In this document: piece after piece, positions 1 through 15,179 of the stretch | Numbering within the stretch: position 1 is the stretch's first letter | Layout of the letters: each line of letters begins with the position of its first letter | Source of the DNA: Verrucomicrobiota bacterium | GTDB lineage: Bacteria; Verrucomicrobiota; Verrucomicrobiia; Verrucomicrobiales; DEV007 | Direction: 5' to 3' | Length of the DNA stretch: 58,569 nucleotides | Assembly (NCBI GenBank): GCA_045046875.1 | Contig: JASFYY010000146.1 | Span: forward strand, 1 to 58,569 | Translations under genes and position numbers: made by a program | The notes under the pieces: model-generated | Told to the model about the DNA's origin: nothing | The model's input: the letters and a program-made list of their open reading frames with translations, nothing else | The model's database searches: none

Positions 1-156
1 TTGGGGCTTAAGCCCCAAGGAATAAAGAAAAAATTTGAAAGCCATGCGATCCACTGCTAATAACTCAAGTCCCTTGTGTAGTTTCTCTAGGATTCGTATT
101 TGCAAATCGCTTGCTAATCATTACGAATTGGAAATGCCATCAGGGAACCCTGCTGA

Positions 157-510
157 ATGAAATTACTAAAAGCACATAGCTGGATTTTTCTGGTTTTCAT
201 CATTGCGGGGTCCTTCTTGATCGGAAATGAAGCGCCGCAATATCTGCCTCAAGCCGAAATAGAGGAAGAATCGATCGAGTCCAAAGAGCTTGAAATAGAC
301 CACTCTGATTCATCCGGTGGCCAACGCTTGAAATCCGGCGGCGGTGACGGTGGCGATAAGTTCCCACAGTCACTGGTAGATTCCGGCTTGAGGGTTCCGA
401 TTTATTCCGGCCGTGCACAGCACTTGCGCCGCCCTCATGCCCAAGCTCAATCTCTGGCGAAGTTCCCCTATTACATCTTGTATTGTAATTTGAAGCTCCC
501 CTTCTGTTAA
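157..510 (+). CDS. small hypothetical protein, possible leader/regulatory ORF of the sulP-dabAB operon
   Basis: 117 aa ORF with N-terminal hydrophobic segment, acidic/Gly-rich linker and C-terminal PYYILYCNLKL; co-directional with and upstream of sulP. Confidence 0.6.
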   Translation: MKLLKAHSWIFLVFIIAGSFLIGNEAPQYLPQAEIEEESIESKELEIDHSDSSGGQRLKSGGGDGGDKFPQSLVDSGLRVPIYSGRAQHLRRPHAQAQSLAKFPYYILYCNLKLPFC

Positions 511-725
511 ACCCTCACACTGAGGGAAGGGTAGATGCTCGTCTGATTGCCACAAGCCTGACCATAGGCTCACCGGCACTCAAACCATAATCGATTCCCC
601 TCTCCAGGGCACTTCACGCCCTGCGCTTGTTTCCTGCAAGCTTATCCGCGGCATTTCACCATCAAGTGGTGATGCCGCTACTCACCAAATTCACAAATAA
701 CAGAAAAACTTTTTTACAAAATACA

Positions 726-2321
726 ATGAACGCTACAAAAACAACACCCCCTAAAGACTGGTTGGAAGGACTCAAGGAAAATTTCAGCTCTGACTTAAGC
801 TCAGGATTCAGCATCTTTTTACTCGCGCTGCCACTAAGTCTAGGCATCGCCCAAGCCTCTGGCATCCCCCCTCTGATGGGAGTGATCTCAGCGATTATCG
901 GCGGTGTCCTAATCACCTTTTTCACTGGATGCAAATTATCCATCAAAGGCCCGGCAGCAGGACTCATCGTGATCGTCGCAGGAGCGGTGTCGGAATTTGG
1001 CGGTGGGGTTGAAGGATGGAAAATGGCCGCAGGCGCCATGGTGGTGGCTGGAATCCTGCAAATAATATTTGGTGTCACCAAGCTCGGCAAATACGTGGAT
1101 TTCTTTCCACTGTCCGCCATTCACGGCATGTTGGCTGCGATCGGCCTGATCATTATCGCCAAGCAAATCCCCGTTTTGTTAAATGACAACCCCAGTTTGA
1201 GTAAAGGTGAAGGACCCTTTGAACTGTTCTACGACATTCCGAAATTCATCTCGAATCTTGACCCGCGAGCCACTCTTGTCGGCTTGGTCAGTCTCGCCAT
1301 CATGCTGGGATGGCCTCGCATCAAACACCGGATCCTCTCCAAATTCCCCGCCCCGCTCATCGTTCTCCTGTTTGCGATCCCTGCAGGCATCTTTATGAAT
1401 TTTGCCACCACTGAACCGGTTTACACTCTGGTCAAGGTGGGCAGCCTGATAGACAGTCTTGCCATCAATGCGAGTTTTGAAGGCGTCAGCCATACTGGTG
1501 TATTCATAAAATACGTAGTCATGCTGTCTTTGGTGGGCACCTTGGAAAGCCTATTGACGGTCAAAGCGATCGATCTGCTCGACCCTTACAAAAGAAAGTC
1601 CTCCCCCAATCAGGATTTGATTGCGATCGGGATTGGCAACACTCTTTCAGCCTTCCTCGGCGGTTACCCCATGATCTCTGAAGTAGCCAGAAGTTCGGCC
1701 AACATCAAAAACGGGGCAAAAACCCGCTGGGCCAACTTTTTCCACGGTGTATTCCTATTGGTCTTCGTATTAGTGGCCTACCCCGTTCTTGAGATGATCC
1801 CCAATGCAGCTTTGGCCGCCATGCTTATTTCCGTCGGCATCAATCTGGCCCATCCAAAAGAGTTCCTGCACATGTCGAAAATCGGCAAAGACCAACTGGC
1901 TATATTTTCAACCACGATCATCGTCACTCTCGCAGAAGACCTGTTGTTAGGGATTGCCGCCGGCATCCTGTTGAAACTGGTGATCCATACCGTGCGAGGT
2001 GTTCGTGCCCGGCATCTATTCAAAGCCTCGGTAACCGTGGAAAACAGTGATGCTGAAAACTACACCATCACCATCAACAACGCGGCTCTCTTCTCCAACT
2101 ATTTGGGAGTTAAAAAACACATCGACAGTATTCCTGGTAAAAAACATATCGACATTGAGCTCTCAGACAGTGTGAAATTAGTCGATCACTCCTTCTTGGA
2201 CAATCTTCATCACTTCAAACACGATTATGAAGAAGAGGGTGGAACGGTGAATATTCTAGGTCTCGATAAACTGACCCCGCTATCAGGGCATGACCTGGCA
2301 GCCCATAAAAGAACATGCTAA
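726..2321 (+). CDS. SulP/SLC26 family inorganic anion (probably bicarbonate) transporter
   Basis: ALPLSLGIA, KGPAAGL, ESLLT and SEVARS motifs, many TM segments, short STAS-like C-terminus; ATG at 726 preferred over the track's TTG at 627. Confidence 0.93.
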   Translation: MNATKTTPPKDWLEGLKENFSSDLSSGFSIFLLALPLSLGIAQASGIPPLMGVISAIIGGVLITFFTGCKLSIKGPAAGLIVIVAGAVSEFGGGVEGWKMAAGAMVVAGILQIIFGVTKLGKYVDFFPLSAIHGMLAAIGLIIIAKQIPVLLNDNPSLSKGEGPFELFYDIPKFISNLDPRATLVGLVSLAIMLGWPRIKHRILSKFPAPLIVLLFAIPAGIFMNFATTEPVYTLVKVGSLIDSLAINASFEGVSHTGVFIKYVVMLSLVGTLESLLTVKAIDLLDPYKRKSSPNQDLIAIGIGNTLSAFLGGYPMISEVARSSANIKNGAKTRWANFFHGVFLLVFVLVAYPVLEMIPNAALAAMLISVGINLAHPKEFLHMSKIGKDQLAIFSTTIIVTLAEDLLLGIAAGILLKLVIHTVRGVRARHLFKASVTVENSDAENYTITINNAALFSNYLGVKKHIDSIPGKKHIDIELSDSVKLVDHSFLDNLHHFKHDYEEEGGTVNILGLDKLTPLSGHDLAAHKRTC

Positions 2322-4864
2322 ATCCTACAGAAATGAAAAAAAGCCTGTTTAATGAAAGCGAAGTGCTTCACCAGTTGAAGCACTATCTGCCGGCACAATC
2401 TACTTTGAAGGATTTTGTGCACCACAACTCATTGCATTCGTTTCAGGACAAGGAGTTCTTCGATGGCATATTCAGTGCCTCGAAGATATTTGGCTTCCAC
2501 GTCACCTTCAATATCAATAATTATCGCAAACTGCACAAGCAAGGCAGGATCCGGAAAGAAATCATTGAACAAGTTATCGAACGTAGTAAAGGCCCCGACA
2601 AGGTCGAAGAGTATCTGGATAAGATGCTGAACGCGGATCTCAAACACCACTATAACCCACGAGTTGGCAAACTGAGGAAAGAATGGAAAAAACAATACAA
2701 AATCGGCCTCGACAATCTGGTTCAACCACTGCTGTTCAGAATCCTGGGAAGTTTTCTAGACCAGGGAATCGCGCTGTGGCACTTCCCCTTTGAAACCGAA
2801 GGCCTCATCGAGGCCATTCGCATCTTGGAAAAAAACAGCTTTACCAGTTTTTTTAAATCGAAAAGAACCAAGCAACTGCTCTTCGAAAACGATCTATCCA
2901 TAGAAAAACTGCTAGCTATCGTAGTAGGCAATCCTGACTACTACAAAAACTACCTCTTTGACCAACAATTCTCACACAAAGGCTGGAGTGGAATTGTGGC
3001 TGTCATTGAAGAAAACCCCGACAGCATCTTTTACAAAAAGAATGTCAAATTTCAGGATCTGATTCTGCTCGAACTGTTGTTGGAAATCGACGCCCTAGAT
3101 AAAACCTTGGGAAACAAATGGAATCCCCTGGCTCTGGATTTCACCGAAGTTCCCATGGATTACCTGTCTCCGGTAGAACATGGCGAACTGGAACAAATAC
3201 TGCAACTCTGGCAGGAGGCGTTTGAATGGGATTATTACGATGATGTTCTGTCGGGAGTGGTCTATTCGGCAAAAAACGGCAGCGCTTCAAATCAAAGCCC
3301 TGCAAGTTTTCAAGCGGTCTTTTGTGTGGATGACCGGGAGTGCTCCTACCGCAGACATCTGGAGAGTGCTGACCCGCAATGCATCACCTATGGAGCGCCT
3401 GGATTTTTCGGTGCTGCTATTTACTACCAGCCTTTCGGTGGAAAATTCTACGACAAAAATTGCCCGGTAGCCCTCGAACCCACTCATCTGATCAAGGAGG
3501 TGGAATCCAATCATGTCAGGAAACATGAGATTTTTCACAACAACAAAACCCATTCTTTTTTCCACGGAGTAGCCTCTGTTTTCTCCATTGGTTTGTTGGC
3601 AGGCTTCAAAATGACCTTGGACTTGGCCAGCCCGAAAATGCAGGCCGACATATCCGATGCTTTTGCACACATGGACGTGAATGGAAAGTTGTTAATCGAA
3701 AACCAGAACCCGGACGAAATCGAGAATGGAGTTCAAGTCGGTTATCAAGTCCACGAAATGGCCGACGTGGTCGAACCTATTTTAAAGGGAATCGGATTGA
3801 TCCAGGATTTCGCGCCCATTGTTTACATTGTCGCCCACGGTAGCAGCAGTGCGAACAACCCCCACCATGGAGCCCATGATTGCGGAGCTTGCAGCGGGAG
3901 GCCTGGCGCGGTCAATGCTCGTGTTTATGCCTTCATGGCCAATCATGAAAAAGTTCGGAAAATTTTGGCGAAAAGAGGTTTGGCCATTCCACAAACCACC
4001 CGCTTCATTGCCGCCATGCATGACACCGCCAGTGATGAAGTGGCGTTTTATGACGAAGACCTGCTCTCAGTCAGTCATGAAAAAGCACATACTCTCAACA
4101 AGGCTGTATTTGAAACGGCGCTTGATCACAATGCAAAGGAACGAGGTCGGCGCTTTTCTTCCATCAACATCAACAAAGATCTAAAAAATATTCGCAAGCA
4201 GGTCAAACAGCGATCCGTCTCCTATTTTGAACCGCGCCCGGAATTAGGGCACGGCACCAATGCCCTGTGCCACATTGGTTCGAGAGATAAAATCAAAGGA
4301 CTGTTTCTGGATCGCCGCGCATTTTTACAATCTTATGATTGCAGCACTGATCCCGAAGGGGAAGTATTAGCCCAGGTTCTTGGGCCACTGCCCGGGGTTT
4401 GTGGAGGCATCAACCTGGAGTATTACTTTTCAAGAATGGACATTGAAAAAATGGGAGCAGGAACAAAACTGCCTCACAATGTAACTGGCCTCATTGGCGT
4501 GACCAATAGCAGTGATGGCGACATTCGGACAGGCCTGCCATTGCAAATGATCGAGAATCATGACCCGGTTCGCTTGCTGATGATGATAGAACACCGGCCT
4601 GAAGTCGTTCTCAGGATTATCAAATCCTCCGCCGCCATTTATGACTGGTTTGATAAAGGATGGATTCATCTGATCGCCATTTCTCCTGAAGACGGCAATC
4701 TGTATTTATTCCGCAATGGCAACTTCGAAAAATACACTCCTCTGAAAGAAGTCTTACTCACCGATGACATCAACCGGGTGATCAAAGAAAGGCCGGAGAT
4801 GAAAACCAACCACATCCTCGATGCCACCGAGGAAAACATCCCAACCTACGTTTATTCAAAATAG
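2315..4864 (+). CDS. dabA: DabA/YbcC (DUF2309) inorganic carbon transporter subunit, beta-CA-like
   Basis: LKDFVHHN N-terminus; putative Zn ligands in FCVDDRE, AHGSS and DCGAC; EPRPELGH and GINLEYYFS motifs; overlaps the sulP stop. Confidence 0.93.
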   Translation: MLNPTEMKKSLFNESEVLHQLKHYLPAQSTLKDFVHHNSLHSFQDKEFFDGIFSASKIFGFHVTFNINNYRKLHKQGRIRKEIIEQVIERSKGPDKVEEYLDKMLNADLKHHYNPRVGKLRKEWKKQYKIGLDNLVQPLLFRILGSFLDQGIALWHFPFETEGLIEAIRILEKNSFTSFFKSKRTKQLLFENDLSIEKLLAIVVGNPDYYKNYLFDQQFSHKGWSGIVAVIEENPDSIFYKKNVKFQDLILLELLLEIDALDKTLGNKWNPLALDFTEVPMDYLSPVEHGELEQILQLWQEAFEWDYYDDVLSGVVYSAKNGSASNQSPASFQAVFCVDDRECSYRRHLESADPQCITYGAPGFFGAAIYYQPFGGKFYDKNCPVALEPTHLIKEVESNHVRKHEIFHNNKTHSFFHGVASVFSIGLLAGFKMTLDLASPKMQADISDAFAHMDVNGKLLIENQNPDEIENGVQVGYQVHEMADVVEPILKGIGLIQDFAPIVYIVAHGSSSANNPHHGAHDCGACSGRPGAVNARVYAFMANHEKVRKILAKRGLAIPQTTRFIAAMHDTASDEVAFYDEDLLSVSHEKAHTLNKAVFETALDHNAKERGRRFSSININKDLKNIRKQVKQRSVSYFEPRPELGHGTNALCHIGSRDKIKGLFLDRRAFLQSYDCSTDPEGEVLAQVLGPLPGVCGGINLEYYFSRMDIEKMGAGTKLPHNVTGLIGVTNSSDGDIRTGLPLQMIENHDPVRLLMMIEHRPEVVLRIIKSSAAIYDWFDKGWIHLIAISPEDGNLYLFRNGNFEKYTPLKEVLLTDDINRVIKERPEMKTNHILDATEENIPTYVYSK

Positions 4865-4870
4865 CATACC

Positions 4871-6745
4871 ATGAACATAAGTTATTTATTATATGCATTG
4901 CTGCTCGTTCCCTTTTTGTCATTGGTCATCAGTTATCTGTTTCCCAATGACAATGAAAAAGCCATCTTCACCACATCTATAACAGGTGTAGCGATTGATT
5001 ACGTGATTCTGGTTGTCGTGGCCATCATCTGGGTTTGGAATGGCTTCCAGCCCATTTTTGTGGAAGGCCCGGTTTTGTACCACACTGGAAAGGCTGACTT
5101 TTCGATCAGCTTTTTGATCGATGGCTACAGTCTGGTCTATTTATTAACCGCAACTTTCTTAACCGGCATCATTGTCATGTTCAGCAAGAATTACATGCAT
5201 CGGGAAAAAGGTTTTAAGCGGTTTTTTAATAACATCAAATTTTTCTACTTCGGTCTGTTGCTGGTATTGATGGCGGGTAATCTGGAGACCATTTTCCTGG
5301 GGTGGGAAATCCTCGGTGTTACTTCTTTTTTCCTGATCGGATTTTACCGCGACCGCTATCTGCCGGTAAAAAATGCCCTGAAGGTGGTCTCCCTCTATCG
5401 AGTAGCTGATGTGTCGATCCTTTTAGGGATCTGGTTGAGCCATCATTATTTTGGCTACAGTATCAATTTCCGGGATCTTCACGGACTGGAAAGCTCCCAT
5501 CATCATATAAATAATGAATCGTTCTATCAATATTTGATCCCCGGACTGTTCTTACTGGCCGCCATGGTCAAATCCGCCCAGTTCCCTTTTTCATCATGGT
5601 TGCCTCGCGCCATGGAGGGCCCCACAACTTCCAGTTCTATTTTTTATGGATCCCTCTCGGCGCATATCGGGGTTTTCCTTTTGATCCGGATATCGCCCTT
5701 ATGGGTAGGCAACTACTGGTTCCATTTTATCATCGGAGGCATTGGTCTGATAACCGTGGTCTTGTCAGGGTTCACCGCCAAAGTTCAATCCACTATTAAA
5801 ACACAGATTGCCTATGCCTCGTTGGTTCAAATAGGCCTCATGTTCATCGAAGTATCATTCGGTTTGTACTGGCTGGCCATGATCCACCTGGTGGGCAATG
5901 CCATGCTGCGCACCCACCAACTGCTTATTTCCCCATCCATCTTGAGTTACAAGATCCATAACCAGTTTTTTAATTTTTCCCCGCCTGCTGCCCAGCTCAA
6001 AGATTCGTTCTGGGATCGCTTGAAATTGTCAGTGTATATTCTCAGTATCAAAGAGTTTAATCTCGATACTTTCATGTATAATTTCTTGTGGAATCCACTG
6101 AAAAAACTGGGCAACTTGATCAATTTCATTTCCCCTAAAATTGTTTTTGCGATTTATTTCCCCCTCTTTTTTTTAGGACTTGCCGGAGTTTACAATAAAG
6201 AAATGGTTCCCGTTCAAATAATAAAATACATTCCGGAAATCTTTGCGGTATTGAGCTTCTCATTAATCCTCAAAGTCTTCGTAAAACGTAAATCAGTTTT
6301 AAACGCATGGTTACTTATAATTCTAAGCCAATTATTCCTCTCGCTGTCATTTGGCTTCAACGAAGAGTTCGACTTCTCCCAGGTTCATATTTTCCTGAGC
6401 GGCATTTTCGTTTCAGGCATCGTTGGTCTGCTTGTCATTTACAGACTCAAATCAAAAGGGAAAAATATAAGCCTCGATCAATTCCATGGCCACTGCTATG
6501 AATTCCCCAGGCTCGCGTTTGTTTTTGTGTTAGCCTGCCTAGGCATATCAGGATTCCCCATCACCCCCACCTTCATTGGTGAAGACTTGATGTTGGGTCA
6601 CATTTACGAAAACCAATTCCCGCTGGTGATCATGTTGATCCTCTGCCTGGTCTTGGATGGTTTGGTCGTTTACCGGATCTATTCACGCCTGTTTTTAGGA
6701 CAGCACAAAAGCGACTACCACGACTTTGCCTTCCGCTCCTCGTAG
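4871..6745 (+). CDS. dabB: DabB, NuoL/MrpA-like proton-conducting membrane subunit of the DIC transporter
   Basis: GWEILG, KSAQFPFSSWLPRAMEGPT and KTQIAYAS motifs; 6 bp after dabA; no other nuo/mrp genes nearby. Confidence 0.9.
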   Translation: MNISYLLYALLLVPFLSLVISYLFPNDNEKAIFTTSITGVAIDYVILVVVAIIWVWNGFQPIFVEGPVLYHTGKADFSISFLIDGYSLVYLLTATFLTGIIVMFSKNYMHREKGFKRFFNNIKFFYFGLLLVLMAGNLETIFLGWEILGVTSFFLIGFYRDRYLPVKNALKVVSLYRVADVSILLGIWLSHHYFGYSINFRDLHGLESSHHHINNESFYQYLIPGLFLLAAMVKSAQFPFSSWLPRAMEGPTTSSSIFYGSLSAHIGVFLLIRISPLWVGNYWFHFIIGGIGLITVVLSGFTAKVQSTIKTQIAYASLVQIGLMFIEVSFGLYWLAMIHLVGNAMLRTHQLLISPSILSYKIHNQFFNFSPPAAQLKDSFWDRLKLSVYILSIKEFNLDTFMYNFLWNPLKKLGNLINFISPKIVFAIYFPLFFLGLAGVYNKEMVPVQIIKYIPEIFAVLSFSLILKVFVKRKSVLNAWLLIILSQLFLSLSFGFNEEFDFSQVHIFLSGIFVSGIVGLLVIYRLKSKGKNISLDQFHGHCYEFPRLAFVFVLACLGISGFPITPTFIGEDLMLGHIYENQFPLVIMLILCLVLDGLVVYRIYSRLFLGQHKSDYHDFAFRSS

Positions 6746-6765
6746 GAAAGCCACGCATCCCTTAA

Positions 6766-7560
6766 CTAATCACCAACCCCATGCACCTCTCTCCCATCGA
6801 TATCCTGAACGGGCCGATTGTTGTGTTTGAGAATTTCCGCGAGTTTGTCTAGCAGTTTCCCATCTGCCTCAAGCTCTTGTTTGAGAATGAACCACTTCAC
6901 CCCCTCGGTACAGGGCGGGGTGGTGAAGGATCCTGAATAAGTATAATAATCCGGCTGGGCAGGCACCAAATCTCTCAAATGAATGCCTTGTTTCATCACC
7001 GTTTTATCCCCCTCTTTCTCCGGTAATTTTGCGTGCGCCACATACTTCAAAGCTTGTGACGACTCGCCGGCTTTATAGAAAATAGCGAGAACGGCAACTT
7101 CTCCATCTTCCGCTTTATGCACCATGTGCAGCTCAACCGGGAAATATTTTCCGTCTACAGTGTGTTCACTAGGTGAATGAAGATGAAACTGCTCCAACTT
7201 GTAATGCTTGCCTGCAACTTCAATCTCACTGCCATCCTCCTCCTGCTGATGTTGCAAAGTATGGCCATTATTAATGAAGTCCGGCCGCTCTTCGCTGTGG
7301 TAGCGAAAAATGAGCTCCGGCAGTTTGTCTTCCACCACCTTACGGGTATCGATATTCACAGGAGATTGCTTTTTCCCAGCATCCGCCAAACTATAACTGG
7401 CACTCAACTTGCCCCAGTATTCAGGCCCCGTAGCCCCTTCGTAACTCCAGTGAGCATCGGGGTGGTGAACTGTTTTTTTAAAATAATAATGCTCGGATTT
7501 AACCTTTTCGGCCGGACCACAAGATACAACTAACAAAACGACAGCTATTAAAAAACGCAT
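6766..7560 (-). CDS. alpha-class carbonic anhydrase, probable lipoprotein
   Basis: HWSYEG, QSPVNI, QFHLHSPSEH, ELHMVH, GSFTTPPCTEGV and NNRPVQ motifs; signal peptide ending VVSC. Confidence 0.95.
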   Translation of the reverse strand: MRFLIAVVLLVVSCGPAEKVKSEHYYFKKTVHHPDAHWSYEGATGPEYWGKLSASYSLADAGKKQSPVNIDTRKVVEDKLPELIFRYHSEERPDFINNGHTLQHQQEEDGSEIEVAGKHYKLEQFHLHSPSEHTVDGKYFPVELHMVHKAEDGEVAVLAIFYKAGESSQALKYVAHAKLPEKEGDKTVMKQGIHLRDLVPAQPDYYTYSGSFTTPPCTEGVKWFILKQELEADGKLLDKLAEILKHNNRPVQDIDGREVHGVGD

Positions 7561-7575
7561 TAGAACCGGATTGGG

Positions 7576-8274
7576 TTAAAATTTATGGTGAATACTAAAC
7601 TGCAACTGCCCCTTGTTCCAATCACTGGTGGTTTGCTGCATGTAGGCTAACTGCACTCTAAAGTTTTTCTTAACGGCATAACCTAAACCTCCATATACGC
7701 GGTTGCGGTCAAAAAGATCCACACTTTTCCCATTGCCAATGTTTTTCTGCATATTGAGGAACAACTCATTGTAAAAAGCCAGATAAACAGCTCCCTCATC
7801 AATCTCCTTCATGTTCAACGGGATGTTCAAAAATATATTATATCTAAGGCGTGTTCTGAAATCCTGATTCTCCACAAATCGTTGCTCAAAACGAAAACGA
7901 TGATTAAAATGAAAGCGGCTGCCTAGTTTTTGTGGGGAAAGCAACTCTTGATAAATCCGCCACTCCTCACTGTTCGAATCACTTTCGCCGAAATCACCAC
8001 TTAACACATAAGCCGACCCTAAAGTGAACTTCAGATTTGTGTCGACCGGCCGATAGGTGATCCCCCCACGCAACAAACGCTGTTCGAGATCCTGGGAAAC
8101 GCCCCAACTGCGATGCTGAAAGTCCCCTTGAAATCCCCATTGGGAATCTTTGATCGGAGCATCCCAGAAATACATATACCACGAGCCGAGTTGACCACCA
8201 TCGACTTGCCCCTGCCCTTTTTGTGCGGTCGAGCAAACTAGCAAGACCACAAGAAGAATGAAATGTTTTGCCAT
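7576..8274 (-). CDS. DUF2490-like outer membrane beta-barrel protein
   Basis: Signal peptide; HRFRFEQRF, RTRLRY and FDRNRVYGGLGY motifs; C-terminal Phe. Confidence 0.8.
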   Translation of the reverse strand: MAKHFILLVVLLVCSTAQKGQGQVDGGQLGSWYMYFWDAPIKDSQWGFQGDFQHRSWGVSQDLEQRLLRGGITYRPVDTNLKFTLGSAYVLSGDFGESDSNSEEWRIYQELLSPQKLGSRFHFNHRFRFEQRFVENQDFRTRLRYNIFLNIPLNMKEIDEGAVYLAFYNELFLNMQKNIGNGKSVDLFDRNRVYGGLGYAVKKNFRVQLAYMQQTTSDWNKGQLQFSIHHKF

Positions 8275-8325
8275 GGCTATCTTTCAGCCACCTCTAATCG
8301 CTAGTCTAGCAAAAAAATTAATTTC

Positions 8326-9582
8326 CTACCACCAGGTTCTAACTCCGGCAAAATGAGTCCACCCGGAAAAACCATCCGTGCCTCCACTCATGTTGGAATA
8401 CTCCGATCCAATCATCACTTTCAAGCGTTCGCCATTAAGCCGGTAATCCAGTCCCGTGTAAAACGCATTGTAGATTCGCCCCTCTTTTCCTCCGCCGTCC
8501 GTTATCGCCTCAGTTTCATATCGCTTTTGCAGAGCTATTCCCGTGTCCGAATTCGATGCGGCTAATTGATAACGAAATACTCCCCGGAGTTTAGGAGTGA
8601 GCTCAACCCACGGCATGAATACGATCCCAAAAGCGCTCTGCCCCTCTCTTTCAGCCGCTCCCACGGTATAGAGCATATCTGTGATCAAGCCATAACCGTC
8701 CCATTTGCTTTTTGAATTCAGCGACACCACATGCTCATAAGGACGCATCTCCCGAGATCCAATTTTTGGATCCGACCACCAGTAGTCCAGGTAGGCCTGG
8801 GTGTTCTCATTCACTTTATAACCCAACTTCAACAGGGCCGCGACACTGCCACTGTTTTCAAACTCCCGAAACTTCCCATCGAGTAAATCTGAAAAAATAC
8901 CGGTCTGAATAGTCACTTTGTCTGTAATATTATAAAACACTGACGCGCCCATAATCTTGTCTACAGTCGACTGCAGAACCAAACGTGAACGGTTAAAAGG
9001 CAATACGAATCTCGAAGAGGTAAATCGTTCCCGGGAGGTATTGGACTTCTGGCGCCCTACCCGGAATTTTAAATCCTTGTTTGGCTTCCAGTCGATATAG
9101 AAGTTGTCCCACCCCTTGAGATACTCTCCGTGAAGATCATCCGCCCCTCGAATATTCGCCTCTAGCACAAAAGTAAATTGACTAAGAAAGGCAATCTTGA
9201 ATCCAGGTCGAATACGTCTTTCCTCCCAACCGGTGGCACTGCCACGATCCGAGTCGACGTAATAGCCTTGACCATGAAAACGACCTATAAAAGTAACCTT
9301 CTGCAGAAGAGGGCTCTCCTCATTGTCATACCAAACGGTGTGATCCCACAGGTTCAGATAAGACCAGGATTGATCCGAAATCGCGGCATCCCCAGTCATC
9401 GCCTCAACCGTATTGGCAGTTTCCGAGCCCGCAAAAACCACATTCCCCAGCAACAAAAGCCAACACAGAGAAGCCCGCACAATGCATCCACCTTGTCTGG
9501 TTTTTATCGTTCTTACGCTCTTTTCACTCATCTTCTCACCACTATTCGATTTGTTCATGTCAAGGCAACCAGCCTCTATCAT
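8326..9582 (-). CDS. OprO/OprP-like anion-selective porin (copy 1)
   Basis: GRFHGQ, ERRIRPG and ERFTSS-RS motifs, amphipathic strands, C-terminal Trp; true start may lie downstream (about 9531). Confidence 0.75.
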   Translation of the reverse strand: MIEAGCLDMNKSNSGEKMSEKSVRTIKTRQGGCIVRASLCWLLLLGNVVFAGSETANTVEAMTGDAAISDQSWSYLNLWDHTVWYDNEESPLLQKVTFIGRFHGQGYYVDSDRGSATGWEERRIRPGFKIAFLSQFTFVLEANIRGADDLHGEYLKGWDNFYIDWKPNKDLKFRVGRQKSNTSRERFTSSRFVLPFNRSRLVLQSTVDKIMGASVFYNITDKVTIQTGIFSDLLDGKFREFENSGSVAALLKLGYKVNENTQAYLDYWWSDPKIGSREMRPYEHVVSLNSKSKWDGYGLITDMLYTVGAAEREGQSAFGIVFMPWVELTPKLRGVFRYQLAASNSDTGIALQKRYETEAITDGGGKEGRIYNAFYTGLDYRLNGERLKVMIGSEYSNMSGGTDGFSGWTHFAGVRTWW

Positions 9583-9663
9583 AAATCATCACAAATAACC
9601 AATTCTTATTTGTGATAACTACTTCGCAAACACACAGCAGATCTGCTCCCCCCTCGCTTGATC

Positions 9664-10596
9664 TCATCTCTTTTTTGCCTGTTTGACCGCGCCCTCCCCA
9701 CCAAACAGCTTTTCCCGTGCTGTCCGGGTGATAGCCAAGGCGATTGGGTGGTGCAGCTTGCGCTCCACTGTGATCGCGTAAAAAGACTCCAATATTTCAT
9801 CCGTCCGCCCCACTTTTTCAACATTGTATTCCCTGCAAATCTCATCCTCGATGATCGTCGGCCCGACAAACAAACCCGCGCCATCACTGCCGAACTCTTT
9901 CAACAAGGCACTGTCGTGAAACTCAGCGCGAATCAGGGGGATATACCCCTTCGCTGACATCCAACGGTCAATGGATCGTCGTAAAAGCGTTCCCTCTGAC
10001 GGCACCAACAACGGCGCGTCTGAAATGGAACCCGGAAAACCTTGCCGATAACGACGCGCCAAATCTTTTGTGCCAAAAAAAGTCACCCCACTCGATCCAA
10101 GAAAATGATTAAAAGCCTTGATTCTGACCGCCCCCCCAATCGGAGCATCTGCAATAACCAAATCCAAACGGTGAATAGACAGATCGGTCAGCAATTCCTC
10201 CGTTTTCCCCTCCTCACAAATTAAACGAACCGGCTTGTCCATCTTCAAGGCGGGTGCCAGCAGACGATGAGAAACCAATTTTGGCAATACGTCCGATATC
10301 CCCACCCTCAATCGAGCCGGGCGATCCGAACCAATCCCCTTCAAACTTTCCCTGAGCTCCTTGCCTAAAGTGAAAATTTCATCCGCATAATCAAAAGCCA
10401 GACGGCCAGAATCCGTCAAAGTCAGCCCACCACGCCCCCTCACAAACAAAGATTCTTCCAAATTGGTCTCCAAGGCCTTGATCTGCGTACTCACCGTCGG
10501 TTGCGATAAATTCAACATCTGACTGGCTTTACCAATGCTTCCCTCCTTCGCCGCCACCCAGAAATAATAAAGATGATGATAATTGAGCCAGTCCAT
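9664..10596 (-). CDS. nhaR: LysR family transcriptional activator, NhaR-like
   Basis: LNYHHLYYFW HTH start; LRVGISD, HRLDLV, EFHDSALLK and FYAITVERKLHHP typical of the NhaR subfamily; ATG at 10596. Confidence 0.88.
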   Translation of the reverse strand: MDWLNYHHLYYFWVAAKEGSIGKASQMLNLSQPTVSTQIKALETNLEESLFVRGRGGLTLTDSGRLAFDYADEIFTLGKELRESLKGIGSDRPARLRVGISDVLPKLVSHRLLAPALKMDKPVRLICEEGKTEELLTDLSIHRLDLVIADAPIGGAVRIKAFNHFLGSSGVTFFGTKDLARRYRQGFPGSISDAPLLVPSEGTLLRRSIDRWMSAKGYIPLIRAEFHDSALLKEFGSDGAGLFVGPTIIEDEICREYNVEKVGRTDEILESFYAITVERKLHHPIALAITRTAREKLFGGEGAVKQAKKR

Positions 10597-10602
10597 AACG
10601 AT

Positions 10603-10667
10603 TAGGTTTAATCTATGGATAAACGCTGTTATTTTCAATTTGTCAATATAATATCCAAACGTAGAAT
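10603..10667 (+). promoter_or_regulatory. putative LysR box and sigma70 promoter for sulP2/beta-CA
   Basis: T-N11-A dyad TAGGTTTAATCTA (10603-10615); TTGTCA (10640-10645), 16 bp spacer, TAGAAT (10662-10667). Confidence 0.55.
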
Positions 10668-10722
10668 CTCTTCAGTCAATAAAATCCAGTCTCCCGCACT
10701 GAACCCCCACTAAACAAAAACG

Positions 10723-12318
10723 ATGAATTCTGACAACAATTTAAGCCCACTGAAACACTTAAAAGATGATCTTCCCGCTGGCTTGGTGGTTTTTTTAGTC
10801 GCTCTGCCTTTATGCCTGGGCATTGCACTGGCATCAGGAGCACCTCTGTTTGCCGGACTGATCAGCGGTATTATAGGAGGGCTGATCGTTGGCGCTCTCA
10901 GTGGATCGCCTCTGGGAGTGAGTGGTCCAGCAGCAGGTCTAGCCGTAATTGTGCTGAACGCGATCACCGAACTGGGCGCCTTTGAGATATTCCTCGTCGC
11001 CGTGATCATCGCCGGCATCATCCAATTGATCATGGGTTTTGCGAAAGCCGGCATCATTGCCTACTTTTTTCCATCTTCGGTGATCCACGGCATGCTGGCC
11101 GGAATCGGAGTCATTATTTTTCTGAAACAAATCCCCCATGCCCTGGGTTACGACAAAGTTTCCGAAGGTGACTTCGCTTTCCAACAGAGGGACGGCCACA
11201 ATACTCTCGAAGAATTGTCACATATGCTGCAATTTATCAGCCCTGGAGTTCTCATCGTATCCGTGACCTCGTTGATCCTTCTCATTCTCTGGGAAACCGC
11301 TTTTTTCAAAAAATTAAAATTCACCAAGCTGGTTCAAGGCCCTCTTGTGGTGGTCATCGTAGGCATTATTTTAAACAAAGTTTTTGCCACCAGCTCCAAT
11401 CTTGCGATCAGCGTCGATCACCTGGTAAAAGTGCCTGTCCCTGATAGTTTCAACAGCTTTATCGGTAACTTCGCCCTGCCCGATTTCAGCGCACTGTCCA
11501 ACCCGGCCGTTTACACCACCGGGATTGTGATCGCCGTCGTTGCCAGCCTTGAAACCCTGCTTTGTGTCGAAGCCTCGGACAAACTAGACAAATTAAAAAG
11601 GATCACCCCGACCAACCGCGAACTGAAAGCCCAGGGAGTCGGCAACATCATCGCTGGTTTTGTAGGTGGACTGCCCCTGACCCAGGTCATCGTCAGAAGC
11701 TCGGCCAACCATCAGTCCGGCGGCAAAACCAAAGCCTCGGCCATCACCCACGGCATCTTGTTGCTGATCAGCGTGCTTGCCATCCCCAAAGTTTTGAACC
11801 TCATACCTCTTGGAGTTCTGGCTGCCATTCTATTAGTCGTGGGTTACAAACTCGCCAAACCCGCCCTCTTCAAAAAAATGTATCAAGACGGGCTCGAGCA
11901 ATTCATTCCTTTCACCATCACTGTGATAGGCATCGTCTTCACCGACCTACTCACGGGCATCGCCATGGGCATGGCGATTGCCATATTTGTCATTCTGAAA
12001 AACAACTTCAGCGTGCCCTTCAAAATGCAAAAAGAAAACCTGAAAGGCAAAGAGAATCTCCGCATCGTGCTCTCCGAAGATGTTACCTTCCTGAACAAAG
12101 CATCCATTCTCAAAACACTGGAACAGATTCCCAACGGCACTTCAGTGGAAATCGATGCCAGTAACACCAAGTTCATCCACTACGACGTGGTCGAGATCAT
12201 TGAAGACTTTGTGATCAGCTCCAAAAACCGCAACATCGAAGTAGTCATCATTGATCTCTACGACCACAAACAAGACAGCCCGATTCAACATTTCAGATTG
12301 GCCAACGATAACAAATAA
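10723..12318 (+). CDS. SulP family anion transporter (second copy)
   Basis: VALPLCLGIA, SGPAAGL, ETLLC and QVIVRSSAN motifs; short STAS-like domain (VTFLNK). Confidence 0.94.
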   Translation: MNSDNNLSPLKHLKDDLPAGLVVFLVALPLCLGIALASGAPLFAGLISGIIGGLIVGALSGSPLGVSGPAAGLAVIVLNAITELGAFEIFLVAVIIAGIIQLIMGFAKAGIIAYFFPSSVIHGMLAGIGVIIFLKQIPHALGYDKVSEGDFAFQQRDGHNTLEELSHMLQFISPGVLIVSVTSLILLILWETAFFKKLKFTKLVQGPLVVVIVGIILNKVFATSSNLAISVDHLVKVPVPDSFNSFIGNFALPDFSALSNPAVYTTGIVIAVVASLETLLCVEASDKLDKLKRITPTNRELKAQGVGNIIAGFVGGLPLTQVIVRSSANHQSGGKTKASAITHGILLLISVLAIPKVLNLIPLGVLAAILLVVGYKLAKPALFKKMYQDGLEQFIPFTITVIGIVFTDLLTGIAMGMAIAIFVILKNNFSVPFKMQKENLKGKENLRIVLSEDVTFLNKASILKTLEQIPNGTSVEIDASNTKFIHYDVVEIIEDFVISSKNRNIEVVIIDLYDHKQDSPIQHFRLANDNK

Positions 12319-12324
12319 TCAACC

Positions 12325-12945
12325 ATGAGAACACAAACCCAGGAAACCCAAAAAAACCTAACTCCAAAAGATGCCCACAGAATCCTGGAGGAAGGAAATC
12401 AACGTTTTGTCCAGAACCTGAAAGTTCAACGCAACCTACAAGAACAAGTTCTCGCCACCAGTAAAGGGCAATACCCCTTTGCCGTCATCTTATCCTGCAT
12501 CGACTCTAGGGTGCCGGCAGAACTCGTGTTTGACCAGGGGATCGGAGACGTATTCAGTGTCCGGGTCGCCGGCAACATCGTTAATGAGGATGTGCTCGGC
12601 TCGATGGAATTCGCTTGCAAAGTCGCCGGCTCAAAAATTGTGGTTGTCCTGGGGCACACCAAATGCGGTGCCGTCAACGCCGCCTGCAATAACGTTGAAC
12701 TGGGCCATATCACAACTCTGCTCAGTAAAGTCAGGCCTGCTGTTGACTTCATCAGAACCAGCGAAAATCCAATGAGCGAAGCCGAAATCGAAAGCGTCGC
12801 CATTCAGAATGTGAAGTTTTCGATTGATCGAATCCGAGCGGAAAGCCCCATTTTAGCCGAACTTGAAAGCGAAGGACAAATTGAAATCGTTGGAGCCATC
12901 TATGACGTTGCTTCCGGGGAAGTGGAGTTTTTCTCCAAAAGCTGA
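12325..12945 (+). CDS. beta-class carbonic anhydrase (cytoplasmic)
   Basis: GNQRF, SCIDSRV, RVAGN and GHTKCGAV Zn motifs; no signal peptide. Confidence 0.96.
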   Translation: MRTQTQETQKNLTPKDAHRILEEGNQRFVQNLKVQRNLQEQVLATSKGQYPFAVILSCIDSRVPAELVFDQGIGDVFSVRVAGNIVNEDVLGSMEFACKVAGSKIVVVLGHTKCGAVNAACNNVELGHITTLLSKVRPAVDFIRTSENPMSEAEIESVAIQNVKFSIDRIRAESPILAELESEGQIEIVGAIYDVASGEVEFFSKS

Positions 12946-12952
12946 AGCGCTT

Positions 12953-12990
12953 AAAAAAAGCGGGGCCTTCCCTTTCGGAAAGACCCCGCT
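12953..12990 (-). terminator. Rho-independent terminator of porin 2, possibly bidirectional
   Basis: Minus strand AGCGGGGTCTTTCC-GAAA-GGGAAGGCCCCGCT, 14 bp stem with two G-U pairs, followed by a T run. Confidence 0.85.
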
Positions 12991-13027
12991 CCACATTACC
13001 AATGTTTAGGCATAGCTCAGAGGGCAA

Positions 13028-14209
13028 CTACCAGAAAGTCCGAACCCCCACCCAAGGGGTCACTCCGGAAAAATCATCCTTGCCACCGGTCAAGTGCGAA
13101 TACTCTGCGCCTGCCATCAACTTCAGCTTGTCTCCGTTGATTTTATAGTTCAATCCGAGATAGATTGCATTATACAAGTCCCCTCTAGTCCCTCCACCAT
13201 CGGTAACCGCTAAGCGGTCGTATCGCTTGGCCAAAGAAATTCCGTTCACAGAATTAGAATTTCCTAATTGATACCTAAATACTCCCTGCAACTTATCAGT
13301 GATGTTGTACCATGGCATCAAAGTCAAACCGAACACCTCTTCTCCTTCCCTCAGTCCAGTTCCAACTCCATAAATAAGGTCCGTATTTAAGCCAAAATCA
13401 TCCCATATATTGGTCGTATTCAAAGAAAAAACATGTTTATAATCCTTTATCTCTCTTGCACCACCTTGACGATCTGCATACCAATAATCTAGGTAGGCTT
13501 GAGTATTCTCATTCACTTTATAACCAAGTTTCATCAAAGCTGCCACACCTCCGCTTCCTTTATAACTATTGAGCTTGTTATCGAGTGGTGACGAATAAAT
13601 TCCACTTTGCAGTGAAAGTTTATCAGTAAATTTATAACGCGCCGACGCGCCCAAAATTTTATCCGAAGTCAATTGATTGACCAACAGGGATCGTTCCGCT
13701 GTTATAATATACTTGGAAGAGGTATACCGCTCTTGTGTCGTATCTGATTTTTGGCGACCAAATTTGAATCGAAGCTTCTTAGTGGGCTCCCACTGCAAAT
13801 AAAGGTTGTCCCAACTTTTAAAAAACGGGCCATCCAGATTTCTCACATCTGCCAGATTAATTTCACCTTGGAACTTAAATTTATTCCAAAATTTCACTGC
13901 GAAACCAGGACGAAAACGACGATTTTCCCAACCCGCTGAATGCCCATGGTTTGAAGAATCATAATAATATTGGCCATGATACCTACCAATGATTTTGACC
14001 TCCTGAATAAAAGAATCCTCTTTGTTTGAATACAAAGTTGTATAATCCCATAAATTGAGATAACTCCAATTGCTGTCTGAAACAACAGCTTCTTCTGCTA
14101 CCGCCTTAGTGCTATCTTCCCCTGCAAAAACAGTGTGATTGACCAAAAGGGTAATGGCCACACATGTAGAGAGAATCCATCCAGCCTGCCTGATTTTTAC
14201 TTTTAACAT
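13028..14209 (-). CDS. OprO/OprP-like porin (copy 2, paralog of 8326-9582)
   Basis: Shares WSYLNLWD, KLGYKVNENTQAYLDYW, TDGGG and GVRTxW with copy 1; signal peptide. Confidence 0.78.
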   Translation of the reverse strand: MLKVKIRQAGWILSTCVAITLLVNHTVFAGEDSTKAVAEEAVVSDSNWSYLNLWDYTTLYSNKEDSFIQEVKIIGRYHGQYYYDSSNHGHSAGWENRRFRPGFAVKFWNKFKFQGEINLADVRNLDGPFFKSWDNLYLQWEPTKKLRFKFGRQKSDTTQERYTSSKYIITAERSLLVNQLTSDKILGASARYKFTDKLSLQSGIYSSPLDNKLNSYKGSGGVAALMKLGYKVNENTQAYLDYWYADRQGGAREIKDYKHVFSLNTTNIWDDFGLNTDLIYGVGTGLREGEEVFGLTLMPWYNITDKLQGVFRYQLGNSNSVNGISLAKRYDRLAVTDGGGTRGDLYNAIYLGLNYKINGDKLKLMAGAEYSHLTGGKDDFSGVTPWVGVRTFW

Positions 14210-14693
14210 TTTATTCGTTGGTTACAGTTTTTCCGTTCGTCAAAATCATTGACGGCTCCTATTTAGTTCGCCTACCCGAAACTAGCCACTGATCAATTGT
14301 GACAATTCGGGCACAAAATATTTTTTGATACAAACTCTGCAAATGGCTTTTGGTTTCACTTGCAGAATGTGTCGAGCGAGGCACTAGAGGTCGTAAAATT
14401 TGATGTAATATAAAATATAAAGTTGAAGCCACTTAACACATATATGCGTATTTGCGCTTTTAAGCAAGTATTTTGAAGCCCTCTCACAGAATCCCCATCC
14501 ATTTCCCTTGTTTTCATTTTTTCTAACGGTTTACTACTCTTTCTTTTTTTAACTCACCTGCATCAATTTGATTCCCCCCCCTCTCACCCCTCTCCTTGTT
14601 TACCTGCCATTCTTTAAAACGATTCATCCGCATAAAACCTTACAAAAATCTCTCTGGACATCACGATGGGAGAAACGAGCTTCATTCACTATC

Positions 14694-15179
14694 ATGCTGA
14701 AAAAAATCATCTCCGGCGGTCAACCCGGTGCGGCTAGAGCAGCACTGGACTGGGCTATTTCCCATCAACTCCCTTACGGAGGATGGTGCCCTCGTTGGCG
14801 CCACATGCATGACGGAGTGCTCGATGAACGTTACGCTGAACTGAAAGAAAGCACCCTGCCTATCTATTCCCAGGCCAAAGAGTGGAACGTGCGCGACAGT
14901 GATGGCACTTTGGTTTTTACGCTTGAGGAGAATCTCGATTCTTTCACCAGAAAAACAGTGGACTTCGCCCGTAAACACGAAAAACCCTGCCATCATATTT
15001 GCGGCACCGGTTACGAAAGCGCCGAAGATCTACTTCATTTCATCAACCGCAACCACATTGAAACTCTCAACATCGCAGGTTCACACGATTCAGAAGAACT
15101 TGGCATTTACATTTACGTAGTGGATCTGTTGAACGAAGCCTTTCCCCAACATTTAACAAAAAATCAACCCCACCCATGA
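14694..15179 (+). CDS. circularly permuted YpsA/SLOG family protein (putative molybdenum carrier)
   Basis: KIISGGQ, GGWCP, NVRDSDGTLVF and LNIAG motifs; ATG at 14694. Confidence 0.8.
   Translation: MLKKIISGGQPGAARAALDWAISHQLPYGGWCPRWRHMHDGVLDERYAELKESTLPIYSQAKEWNVRDSDGTLVFTLEENLDSFTRKTVDFARKHEKPCHHICGTGYESAEDLLHFINRNHIETLNIAGSHDSEELGIYIYVVDLLNEAFPQHLTKNQPHP

Follow-up and report, generated by a model that had tools for sequence, protein, structure and literature searches.

We sought to identify the purpose of a dense cluster of inorganic-carbon genes in a bacterium that appears to live as a heterotroph. The cluster, here called the island, lies at positions 157-14209 of the window, which is the whole stretch analysed, namely the entire contig C146 (58,569 nt) of a Verrucomicrobiota assembly of 5.59 Mb (94.7% complete, 0.19% contaminated). 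Open reading frame (ORF) calling with Pfam and NCBIfam scans gave eleven ORFs in the island, all with open frames, and confirmed the inventory of an original prediction made from the sequence of the window: the DabAB pump, two SulP anion transporters, an alpha- and a beta-carbonic anhydrase (CA), outer-membrane barrels and an NhaR-like LysR regulator. That prediction had joined these genes into one co-regulated pathway from the outer membrane to the cytoplasm. We consider it fairly probable that the cluster provides pyruvate carboxylase and other carboxylases with cytoplasmic bicarbonate, and that it does so by two modules under separate control and not by one serial pathway.

Gene order is the best functional evidence for this reading. 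In two genus mates the SulP/beta-CA unit leads directly into the pyruvate carboxylase gene (pyc). The LysR gene of G002 is divergent from SulP-beta-CA-pyc, and that of G001, a genome with no DabA, is divergent from SulP-beta-CA-SulP-beta-CA-pyc, followed on the same strand by porin-DUF2490-alpha-CA, an arrangement that joins two contigs by an identical overlap of 141 bp. The predicted linkage of porin, DUF2490 and alpha-CA to the CA/SulP unit is therefore real in G001. A 231-aa gene after the alpha-CA of that genome was considered as a further CA and rejected, being a sulfotransferase. Gene order varies among the genus mates: G003 keeps LysR, SulP, beta-CA and porin together with the alpha-CA elsewhere, G004 has the SulP-beta-CA pair with no match to the LysR, and the complete arrangement was seen in one other genome only (locus L035). 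Synteny was read from ORF lists, supplemented by family scans of selected ORFs. In the native dab loci of relatives, purE and the bicarbonate-using purK are present in three of the four loci annotated. Pyruvate carboxylase and PurK both use bicarbonate. Since pyc stands in the genus-mate clusters and purE/purK in the native dab loci, bicarbonate supply to carboxylases is supported, and anaplerosis, which the original prediction had offered beside pH/Na+ homeostasis, is the likely purpose in view of the pyc inside the homologous clusters of G001 and G002. For the DABs of heterotrophs, a role in supplying biotin carboxylases has been proposed (10.1101/476713).

The heterotrophic lifestyle itself was borne out. 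Whole-genome searches for RuBisCO, for bacterial microcompartment (BMC) shell proteins and for CdhC of carbon monoxide dehydrogenase/acetyl-CoA synthase were empty with positive controls, within an assembly that is incomplete as stated above; a search for the ATP-citrate lyase domain was also empty, with its controls silent too. As predicted, no RuBisCO or carboxysome family occurs among the 35 window ORFs scanned, and the window encodes three sulfatases and other degrader-type genes. The genome holds a full-length pyruvate carboxylase (1650 bits) on a contig other than that of the island, while phosphoenolpyruvate carboxylase was not found in a genome search with positive controls. The pyruvate carboxylase locus, L090, has a SulP-STAS gene convergent downstream and an IclR regulator divergent upstream (L090:4706-8185(+), 8615-10237(-)). 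These searches bear on the idea that the island is an accessory CO2-concentrating system for an autotrophic pathway elsewhere in the genome. Genes of the dissolved inorganic carbon toolkit are most abundant in autotrophs (PMC10880623), and autotrophy genes may be missing from the assembly; against this stand the empty RuBisCO, CdhC and BMC searches (the 3-hydroxypropionate and reductive glycine pathways were not searched) and the degrader-type genes, which leave that idea extremely improbable. The occurrence of DABs in heterotrophs is already in print (10.1101/476713; PMC13144422).

The first of the two proposed modules is defined by the LysR gene and its neighbours. LysR orthologues (86-97% identical) are divergent from SulP-beta-CA in four of the five genus mates, and within the 126-bp spacer between LysR and SulP2 a TAG-N7-CTA dyad of the T-N11-A form is kept in all five genus sequences although they differ over the remainder of the spacer. 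A promoter-like site at 10640-10667 would place the transcription start about 65 bp downstream of the box centre, a spacing that is usual for LysR activators; overall counts of promoter-like and terminator-like sites were at chance level (21 versus 19.5 and 18 versus 14.5). Because this conserved box precedes SulP2 and the beta-CA, control of the pair by the LysR is likely on sequence grounds, and to that extent the predicted role of the regulator is retained; its signal could be bicarbonate, pH or Na+. Its extension to all genes of the island is not: no other match to the box pattern, which was derived from this one site, was found within 1-14209, including upstream of dabAB. The window LysR falls just short of the NhaR model (Table 1), and its 88%-identical G001 orthologue passes the cut-off at 219.6 bits. 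NhaR of Escherichia coli is a Na+-dependent activator of nhaA. The genome search found no nhaA (PF06965), with positive controls and at the completeness given above, so that a Na+ role through NhaA is not supported.

Related LysRs fall into two groups, the NhaR-like group of the window protein and a sister clade at 32-34% identity to it in one comparison and 33-37% in another. In the 14 examined of 15 sister-clade entries, 12 are divergent from dab genes and two from sbtA (L086 and L087, in genomes without DabA). All 12 genomes that have native DabA (G054, G046, G039, G057, G050, G051, G032, G030, G016, G023, G041 and G018) encode the sister LysR upstream of dabA, at a distance of 1.65-2.2 kb and on the other strand, and dabB was confirmed between the two in four of them. 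From this arrangement the sister clade is likely a dedicated inorganic-carbon regulator. Six sister-clade LysR spacers, once aligned, contained no match to the window's box.

The enzymes of the island appear intact. The alpha-CA begins with a hydrophobic stretch followed by VVSC with Cys14, which we read by eye, with no predictor, as a lipobox; it matches PF00194 and retains the three-His zinc site (H126, H128, H145, read from the sequence). The roles of these residues, of H100 at the shuttle position and of T213 are presumed from human CA II. The beta-CA matches PF00484 with its CxDxR and HxxC motifs complete (C58, D60, R62, H111, C114) and has no signal peptide by the same kind of by-eye reading. 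Another beta-CA with an apparent signal peptide is encoded elsewhere in the genome (L003:7557-8252(-)). Both transporters belong to the SulP family (PF00916), SulP1 scoring below the TIGR00815 cut-off as well as that for BicA.

The second proposed module comprises the small first ORF, SulP1, dabA and dabB, where the SulP1 end overlaps the dabA start by 7 nt and the dabA-dabB gap is 6 bp. Its proteins resemble those of another phylum. The window DabA is 76, 67, 68 and 65% identical to four Bacteroidota proteins and 25-27% identical to those of four other Verrucomicrobiales; for DabB the values are 79, 63, 64 and 64% to Bacteroidota and 24-25% to native DabB. The two closest DabA matches (93% and 97%) are titled Verrucomicrobia. 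A search with DabA patterns derived from the window, which favours close relatives, gave 36 loci, by title 32 Bacteroidota, two Verrucomicrobia, one Saccharibacteria and one Azotobacter. All eight Bacteroidota loci examined have an ORF of 113-128 aa ahead of the cassette and a SulP gene adjacent or fused, and DUF2490 follows in seven of the eight; L038 has the same order ORF-SulP-dabA-dabB, and L046 a SulP-DabA fusion. Across five Bacteroidota genomes the best SulP2 matches are 66, 68, 62, 52 and 36% identical, against no more than 53% outside the genus among the 61 genomes of the host's order that were searched, and L095 carries SulP-beta-CA-DUF2490. None of the five Bacteroidota genomes searched gave a match to the LysR or to the porin, while in the host's order LysR relatives occur in 25/61 and OprO/P relatives in 47/61 genomes. 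The alpha-CA family is present in 7/61 genomes, four of them in this genus. DabA was found in 15/61, of which 12 carry a different, native subtype. It is missing from G001, G003 and G004 (each at least 91% complete), i.e. from three of the five genus mates, so that three of six genus genomes have DabAB.

Judged by these identities, DabA, DabB, SulP2 and the small first ORF look Bacteroidota-derived and the LysR and two porins native. Because Bacteroidota-like DabA, DabB and SulP2 stand beside a LysR and porin not found in the Bacteroidota genomes searched, the island is likely a mosaic, much of it from Bacteroidota. The GC content of the island, 0.44-0.49, is below the 0.51 of the whole genome, but other parts of the window have 0.46-0.47, so that it is too weak as a sign of transfer. 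Around the Bacteroidota cassettes we also observed a divergent Crp/Fnr-like gene ahead of the small ORF in L036, L039, L042 and L048, recognised by eye in the first and by Pfam in the others. Genes for an integrase or relaxase are close by in L039 and L042, which come from Psychroserpens burtonensis and Maribacter antarcticus, and an NhaD-like (CitMHS) gene lies within the L036 cassette. In the Azotobacter locus, L060, a DabA of the same branch (49%) precedes two ORFs, of 624 and 532 aa, which suggests further transfer.

This mosaic bears directly on the single co-regulated serial pathway, in which porins would admit bicarbonate, the alpha-CA would make CO2 for DabAB, the SulPs would import and NhaR-like control would cover all of it. 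All parts do occur together here and in L035, porin-DUF2490-alpha-CA is co-directional with SulP/CA/pyc in G001, the gaps LysR-porin-DUF2490-alpha-CA are short (about 80, 50 and 15 bp), and a periplasmic CA is a logical CO2 source for DAB at alkaline pH. Yet the island genes form four transcription blocks of two origins, three genus mates lack DabA, the alpha-CA is unlinked in G003, no box match lies upstream of the dab operon, the OprO/P family is widespread, and the full arrangement recurs only once. By the account of PMC8552792, bicarbonate delivered by a pump would be expected to revert to CO2 where a CA is free in the cytoplasm, coexistence of MpsAB with CA is rare, and a transporter combined with cytoplasmic CA in Staphylococcus brought no benefit and slightly lowered growth. 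We regard the serial pathway as improbable. Two modules for different conditions fit better, because they have separate origins and separate transcription blocks and because DabAB occurs in only half of the genus genomes.

Several observations weigh against carboxylase supply and the history proposed for the island. The related genomes are kin and not independent observations. Two further beta-CA genes are present in the genome, so that need alone does not explain the island; pyc lies on a contig separate from the cluster in this genome, in G003 and in G005, and purK was not found in this genome with positive controls. Against the BicA model (NF050096, cut-off 880) the two SulPs score 148.9 and 141.9 bits, far below, and SulP members carry many anions (PMC10880623). 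The 12/12 link to dab belongs to the sister clade and not to the clade of the window's LysR, which elsewhere adjoins TerC/Alx, an HPF-like gene, a zinc peptidase or Rnk in six of six loci; no CA, SulP or Dab was found among the neighbours scanned at these loci (6 of 11 full-length non-genus entries). The direction of transfer, finally, is proposed from identities and patchiness.

We compared the pump with the DAB2 structure, 9rd0. The DabA zinc site C337, D339, R341, H508 and C523 aligns to C351, D353, R355, H524 and C539 of 9rd0_A, giving the Cys2His zinc ligands and Asp-Arg dyad of the DAB/DAC/MpsAB family, and the PF10070 subunit gene stands beside a PF00361 subunit gene as in that family. 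These five residues, together with L644 and H646, are invariant in 33 of 33 sequences, made up of the window protein and 32 loci; of the original 36, the comparison excluded L035, two partial matches and one match that was out of frame. The marks of the DAB2 subtype are absent: Leu427 replaces finger Glu444, and Leu644 and His646 replace Trp656 and Leu658 of the RPEWGL motif. All four native Verrucomicrobiales DabA keep SCFSFVE and RPEWGL. DabB lacks the Ile that DAB2-type DabB has at the NuoL Glu144 position (PMC13144422); Glu146 is kept there in 5/5 sequences of this branch, and I, V, M or A occurs in 4/4 natives. As to DabC, the third subunit of the DAB1 subtype, no further ORF lies between dabB and the convergent alpha-CA gene. 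DabB carries a C-terminal GFPITPTFIGED (GED) motif, with E571 and D572 as its acidic residues, that aligns weakly with the NdhF TM12 motif, the phmmer score of the stretch being not significant. Glu444 is essential in DAB2 and Leu658 strictly conserved yet replaceable (PMC13144422). The DAB1 authors doubt that the finger carries protons, and W656 changes decouple DAB2 (PMC13684180). From these swaps we infer that the ion path may be held within DabB, probably unlike DAB1/DAB2, with the acidic TM12-like motif as predicted substitute for the finger glutamate. Such a divergent DabAB offers a natural test of the dispute between two 2026 structures on whether the DabA finger glutamate carries protons.

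The same residues have a place in another explanation, CO2 disposal or pH buffering, in which a CA or a partly uncoupled DabA would make bicarbonate, SulP would export it and control would fall to an NhaR-like protein that senses Na+ or alkaline pH. DabA has a His at the canonical beta-CA position and a Leu in place of W656, the residue whose mutation decouples DAB2; the LysR resembles NhaR most closely, and members of its clade adjoin TerC/Alx at other loci; SulP-DabA fusions parallel SulP-beta-CA fusions; and the L036 cassette includes the NhaD-like gene. However, carboxylase supply is what the gene order suggests, with pyc in the unit of two genus mates and purK next to native DABs; a search for nhaA was negative, and L658Q gave DAB2 no free CA activity (PMC13144422). 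We give disposal little chance, and carboxylase supply remains the preferred reading.

The outer-membrane step is the weakest part of the scheme. Three barrels had been predicted and three are present, but they belong to two families, one DUF2490 and two OprO/P-like paralogues. The AlphaFold2 model of DUF2490 (pLDDT 81.5, pTM 0.75) has an N-terminal helix followed by an all-beta fold of 11 strand elements, and R55, R69, R126, R142, R144, E130 and E170 are invariant in 11 of 11 sequences. The island porins are 52% identical to each other, with further paralogues on contigs C9 (51%) and C103 (33%), and copy 2 occupies this place only here and in L035. DUF2490 is more likely than the OprO/P porins to pass the anion across the outer membrane, because it recurs with both cassettes, is modelled as all-beta and has five invariant arginines, while OprO/P porins are common and duplicated. 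The commonness of the porins also suits an insertion hot spot of unrelated envelope genes, where they would carry phosphate or other anions with no role in carbon supply: the family is often multicopy across its 47 of 61 genomes, this genome has two more paralogues outside the island, the genus mates vary in gene order, and copy 2 was seen at this place in two genomes only. This we hold to be quite improbable, given that the single OprO/P match of G001 lies just upstream of DUF2490 and alpha-CA, that the single match of G003 also lies beside cluster genes, and that DUF2490 accompanies both DabAB and SulP-CA cassettes in Bacteroidota.

The original gene list left the 117-aa first ORF unnamed. 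Its product has no Pfam or NCBIfam match; a profile search gave 64 matches, 60 of them of 93-134 aa, and its top Atlas matches reach 0.95 with Bacteroidota the commonest phylum, the Atlas model being poor (pTM 0.16). The small ORFs ahead of dab cassettes (window 157-510, L001:7543-7890, L036:9582-9926 and others) share a hydrophobic start, an acidic middle and a C-terminal PxYILYCxLKL, a layout that to our mind resembles translated leader peptides, and 157-510 is a candidate leader or accessory gene of the dab cassette. The island runs about 1.4 kb beyond the left window end, where the end of contig C152 and the window start share 18 identical bases; L035 is contiguous across this point with every gene present in the same order. 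The extension contributes a second small ORF (a 50% identical paralogue on C152) and a second DUF2490. An RND-type efflux operon, read by eye (L001:1555-7285(-)), borders the left end, and a circularly permuted YpsA SLOG gene (window 14568-15179(+)) flanks the island here and in G001 and was not seen after the porin in L035.

Table 1. Features of the island, in window coordinates.
Feature	Positions	Strand	Evidence or remark
117-aa ORF, no family	157..510	+	hydrophobic N-terminus, acidic middle, C-terminal PYYILYCxLKL
SulP1 anion transporter	726..2321 (likely ATG at 726; longest ORF from 627)	+	PF00916 229 bits
DabA	2315..4864	+	PF10070 678 bits
DabB, NuoL-like, 624 aa	4871..6745	+	Proton_antipo_M/N
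Alpha-carbonic anhydrase, predicted lipoprotein	6766..7560	-	PF00194 154 bits
DUF2490, predicted outer-membrane beta-barrel	7576..8274	-	PF10677 162 bits
OprO/OprP-like porin copy 1	8326..9582	-	PF07396 (Porin_O_P) 36.8 bits, part of model
NhaR-like LysR regulator	9664..10596	-	NF008284 216.5 bits, cut-off 219
Candidate LysR operator TAGGTTTAATCTA	10603..10615	unstranded	T-N11-A, dyad TAG-N7-CTA
SulP2 anion transporter	10723..12318	+	PF00916
Beta-carbonic anhydrase	12325..12945	+	PF00484; NF011765 255, cut-off 221
OprO/OprP-like porin copy 2	13028..14209	-	Pfam Porin_O_P; likely local duplicate of copy 1

Under the preferred reading of carboxylase supply, the genus-wide first module would work as follows. 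By binding at the TAG-N7-CTA box, the NhaR-like LysR likely acts as an activator of SulP2 and the beta-CA. SulP2 is a likely importer of an anion that is probably bicarbonate, and in the cytoplasm the beta-CA would equilibrate CO2 and bicarbonate. In the periplasm equilibrium would be maintained by the alpha-CA, a predicted lipoprotein, and the anion would cross the outer membrane through DUF2490 more likely than through the OprO/P porins. The second module, a later likely acquisition from Bacteroidota found in half of the genus, is likely an ion-gradient-driven CO2 hydratase for times when CO2 is scarce. What the sequences show directly are the identities of the genes, their intact metal sites, the synteny, the conserved box and the residue swaps; the substrates, the direction of transport, the regulation and the direction of transfer are deduced from these.

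Each of these families is already known, as are DABs, SulP-CA pairs and CAs in heterotrophs, where the anaplerosis link is mostly assumed. Here that link can be read from gene order, with pyc and purK inside the loci. The LysR with its mapped candidate box is in turn a candidate inorganic-carbon sensor in heterotrophs, and DUF2490 a candidate route for bicarbonate across the outer membrane. In the literature, subscription papers and supplements aside, we found no link between NhaR-like regulators or DUF2490 and inorganic carbon, and no description of this DabA branch, which the supplementary trees and alignments of PMC13144422, PMC13684180 and PMC10880623 may already show. A bolder combined view would hold that NhaR-family LysRs regulate bicarbonate supply in heterotrophic Verrucomicrobia (the sister clade dabBA/sbtA, the window clade SulP-CA-pyc), that DUF2490 is a dedicated outer-membrane bicarbonate channel, and that the DAB with His646 and no finger Glu is a third mechanistic type that acts in a SulP complex and is controlled by a translated leader ORF. 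All of this would make up a carbon-concentrating regulon of heterotrophs that spreads between phyla. We think this combination unlikely.

The island can finally be set against known systems. With DAB2 (Halothiobacillus neapolitanus DabA2-DabB2, PDB 9rd0), DAB1 (Thermocrinis albus) and MpsAB (Staphylococcus aureus) it shares the pair of PF10070 and NuoL-like subunits, the Cys2His zinc site, the Asp-Arg dyad and the NNP..DCGAC and GxxGFFG motifs, but dabA precedes dabB, a SulP gene lies upstream and there is no DabC; the NuoL-type Glu146 stands where DabB2 has Ile151. Compared with native DabB, the window protein has Asn343 and Arg347 instead of His and Lys, and the extra C-terminal GED motif. 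From the Bacteroidota dab cassettes, whose DabA branch, small ORF, SulP link and DUF2490 companion it shares, it differs in its union with an alpha-CA, OprO/P porins and a LysR that is native, and in the pyc linkage of the genus mates. As in SulP-beta-CA pairs and BicA systems, a SulP gene lies beside an intact beta-CA, and the fused form also occurs in this genome (L002:8560-10824(-)), yet the SulPs score far below the BicA cut-off and have no Pfam STAS match; the pair is placed with an NhaR-like LysR here, whereas in L095 it follows a gene that reads by eye as TetR-like. The porins match OprO/OprP phosphate-selective porins in scoring above the PF07396 cut-off and in their aromatic C-terminal residue, whereas only about 120-180 of the 370 model positions match. 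E. coli NhaR is the best NCBIfam counterpart of the window LysR, which is encoded in a genome with no nhaA found and divergent from SulP-beta-CA(-pyc); it would presumably work more like the cyanobacterial inorganic-carbon regulators CmpR/NdhR.

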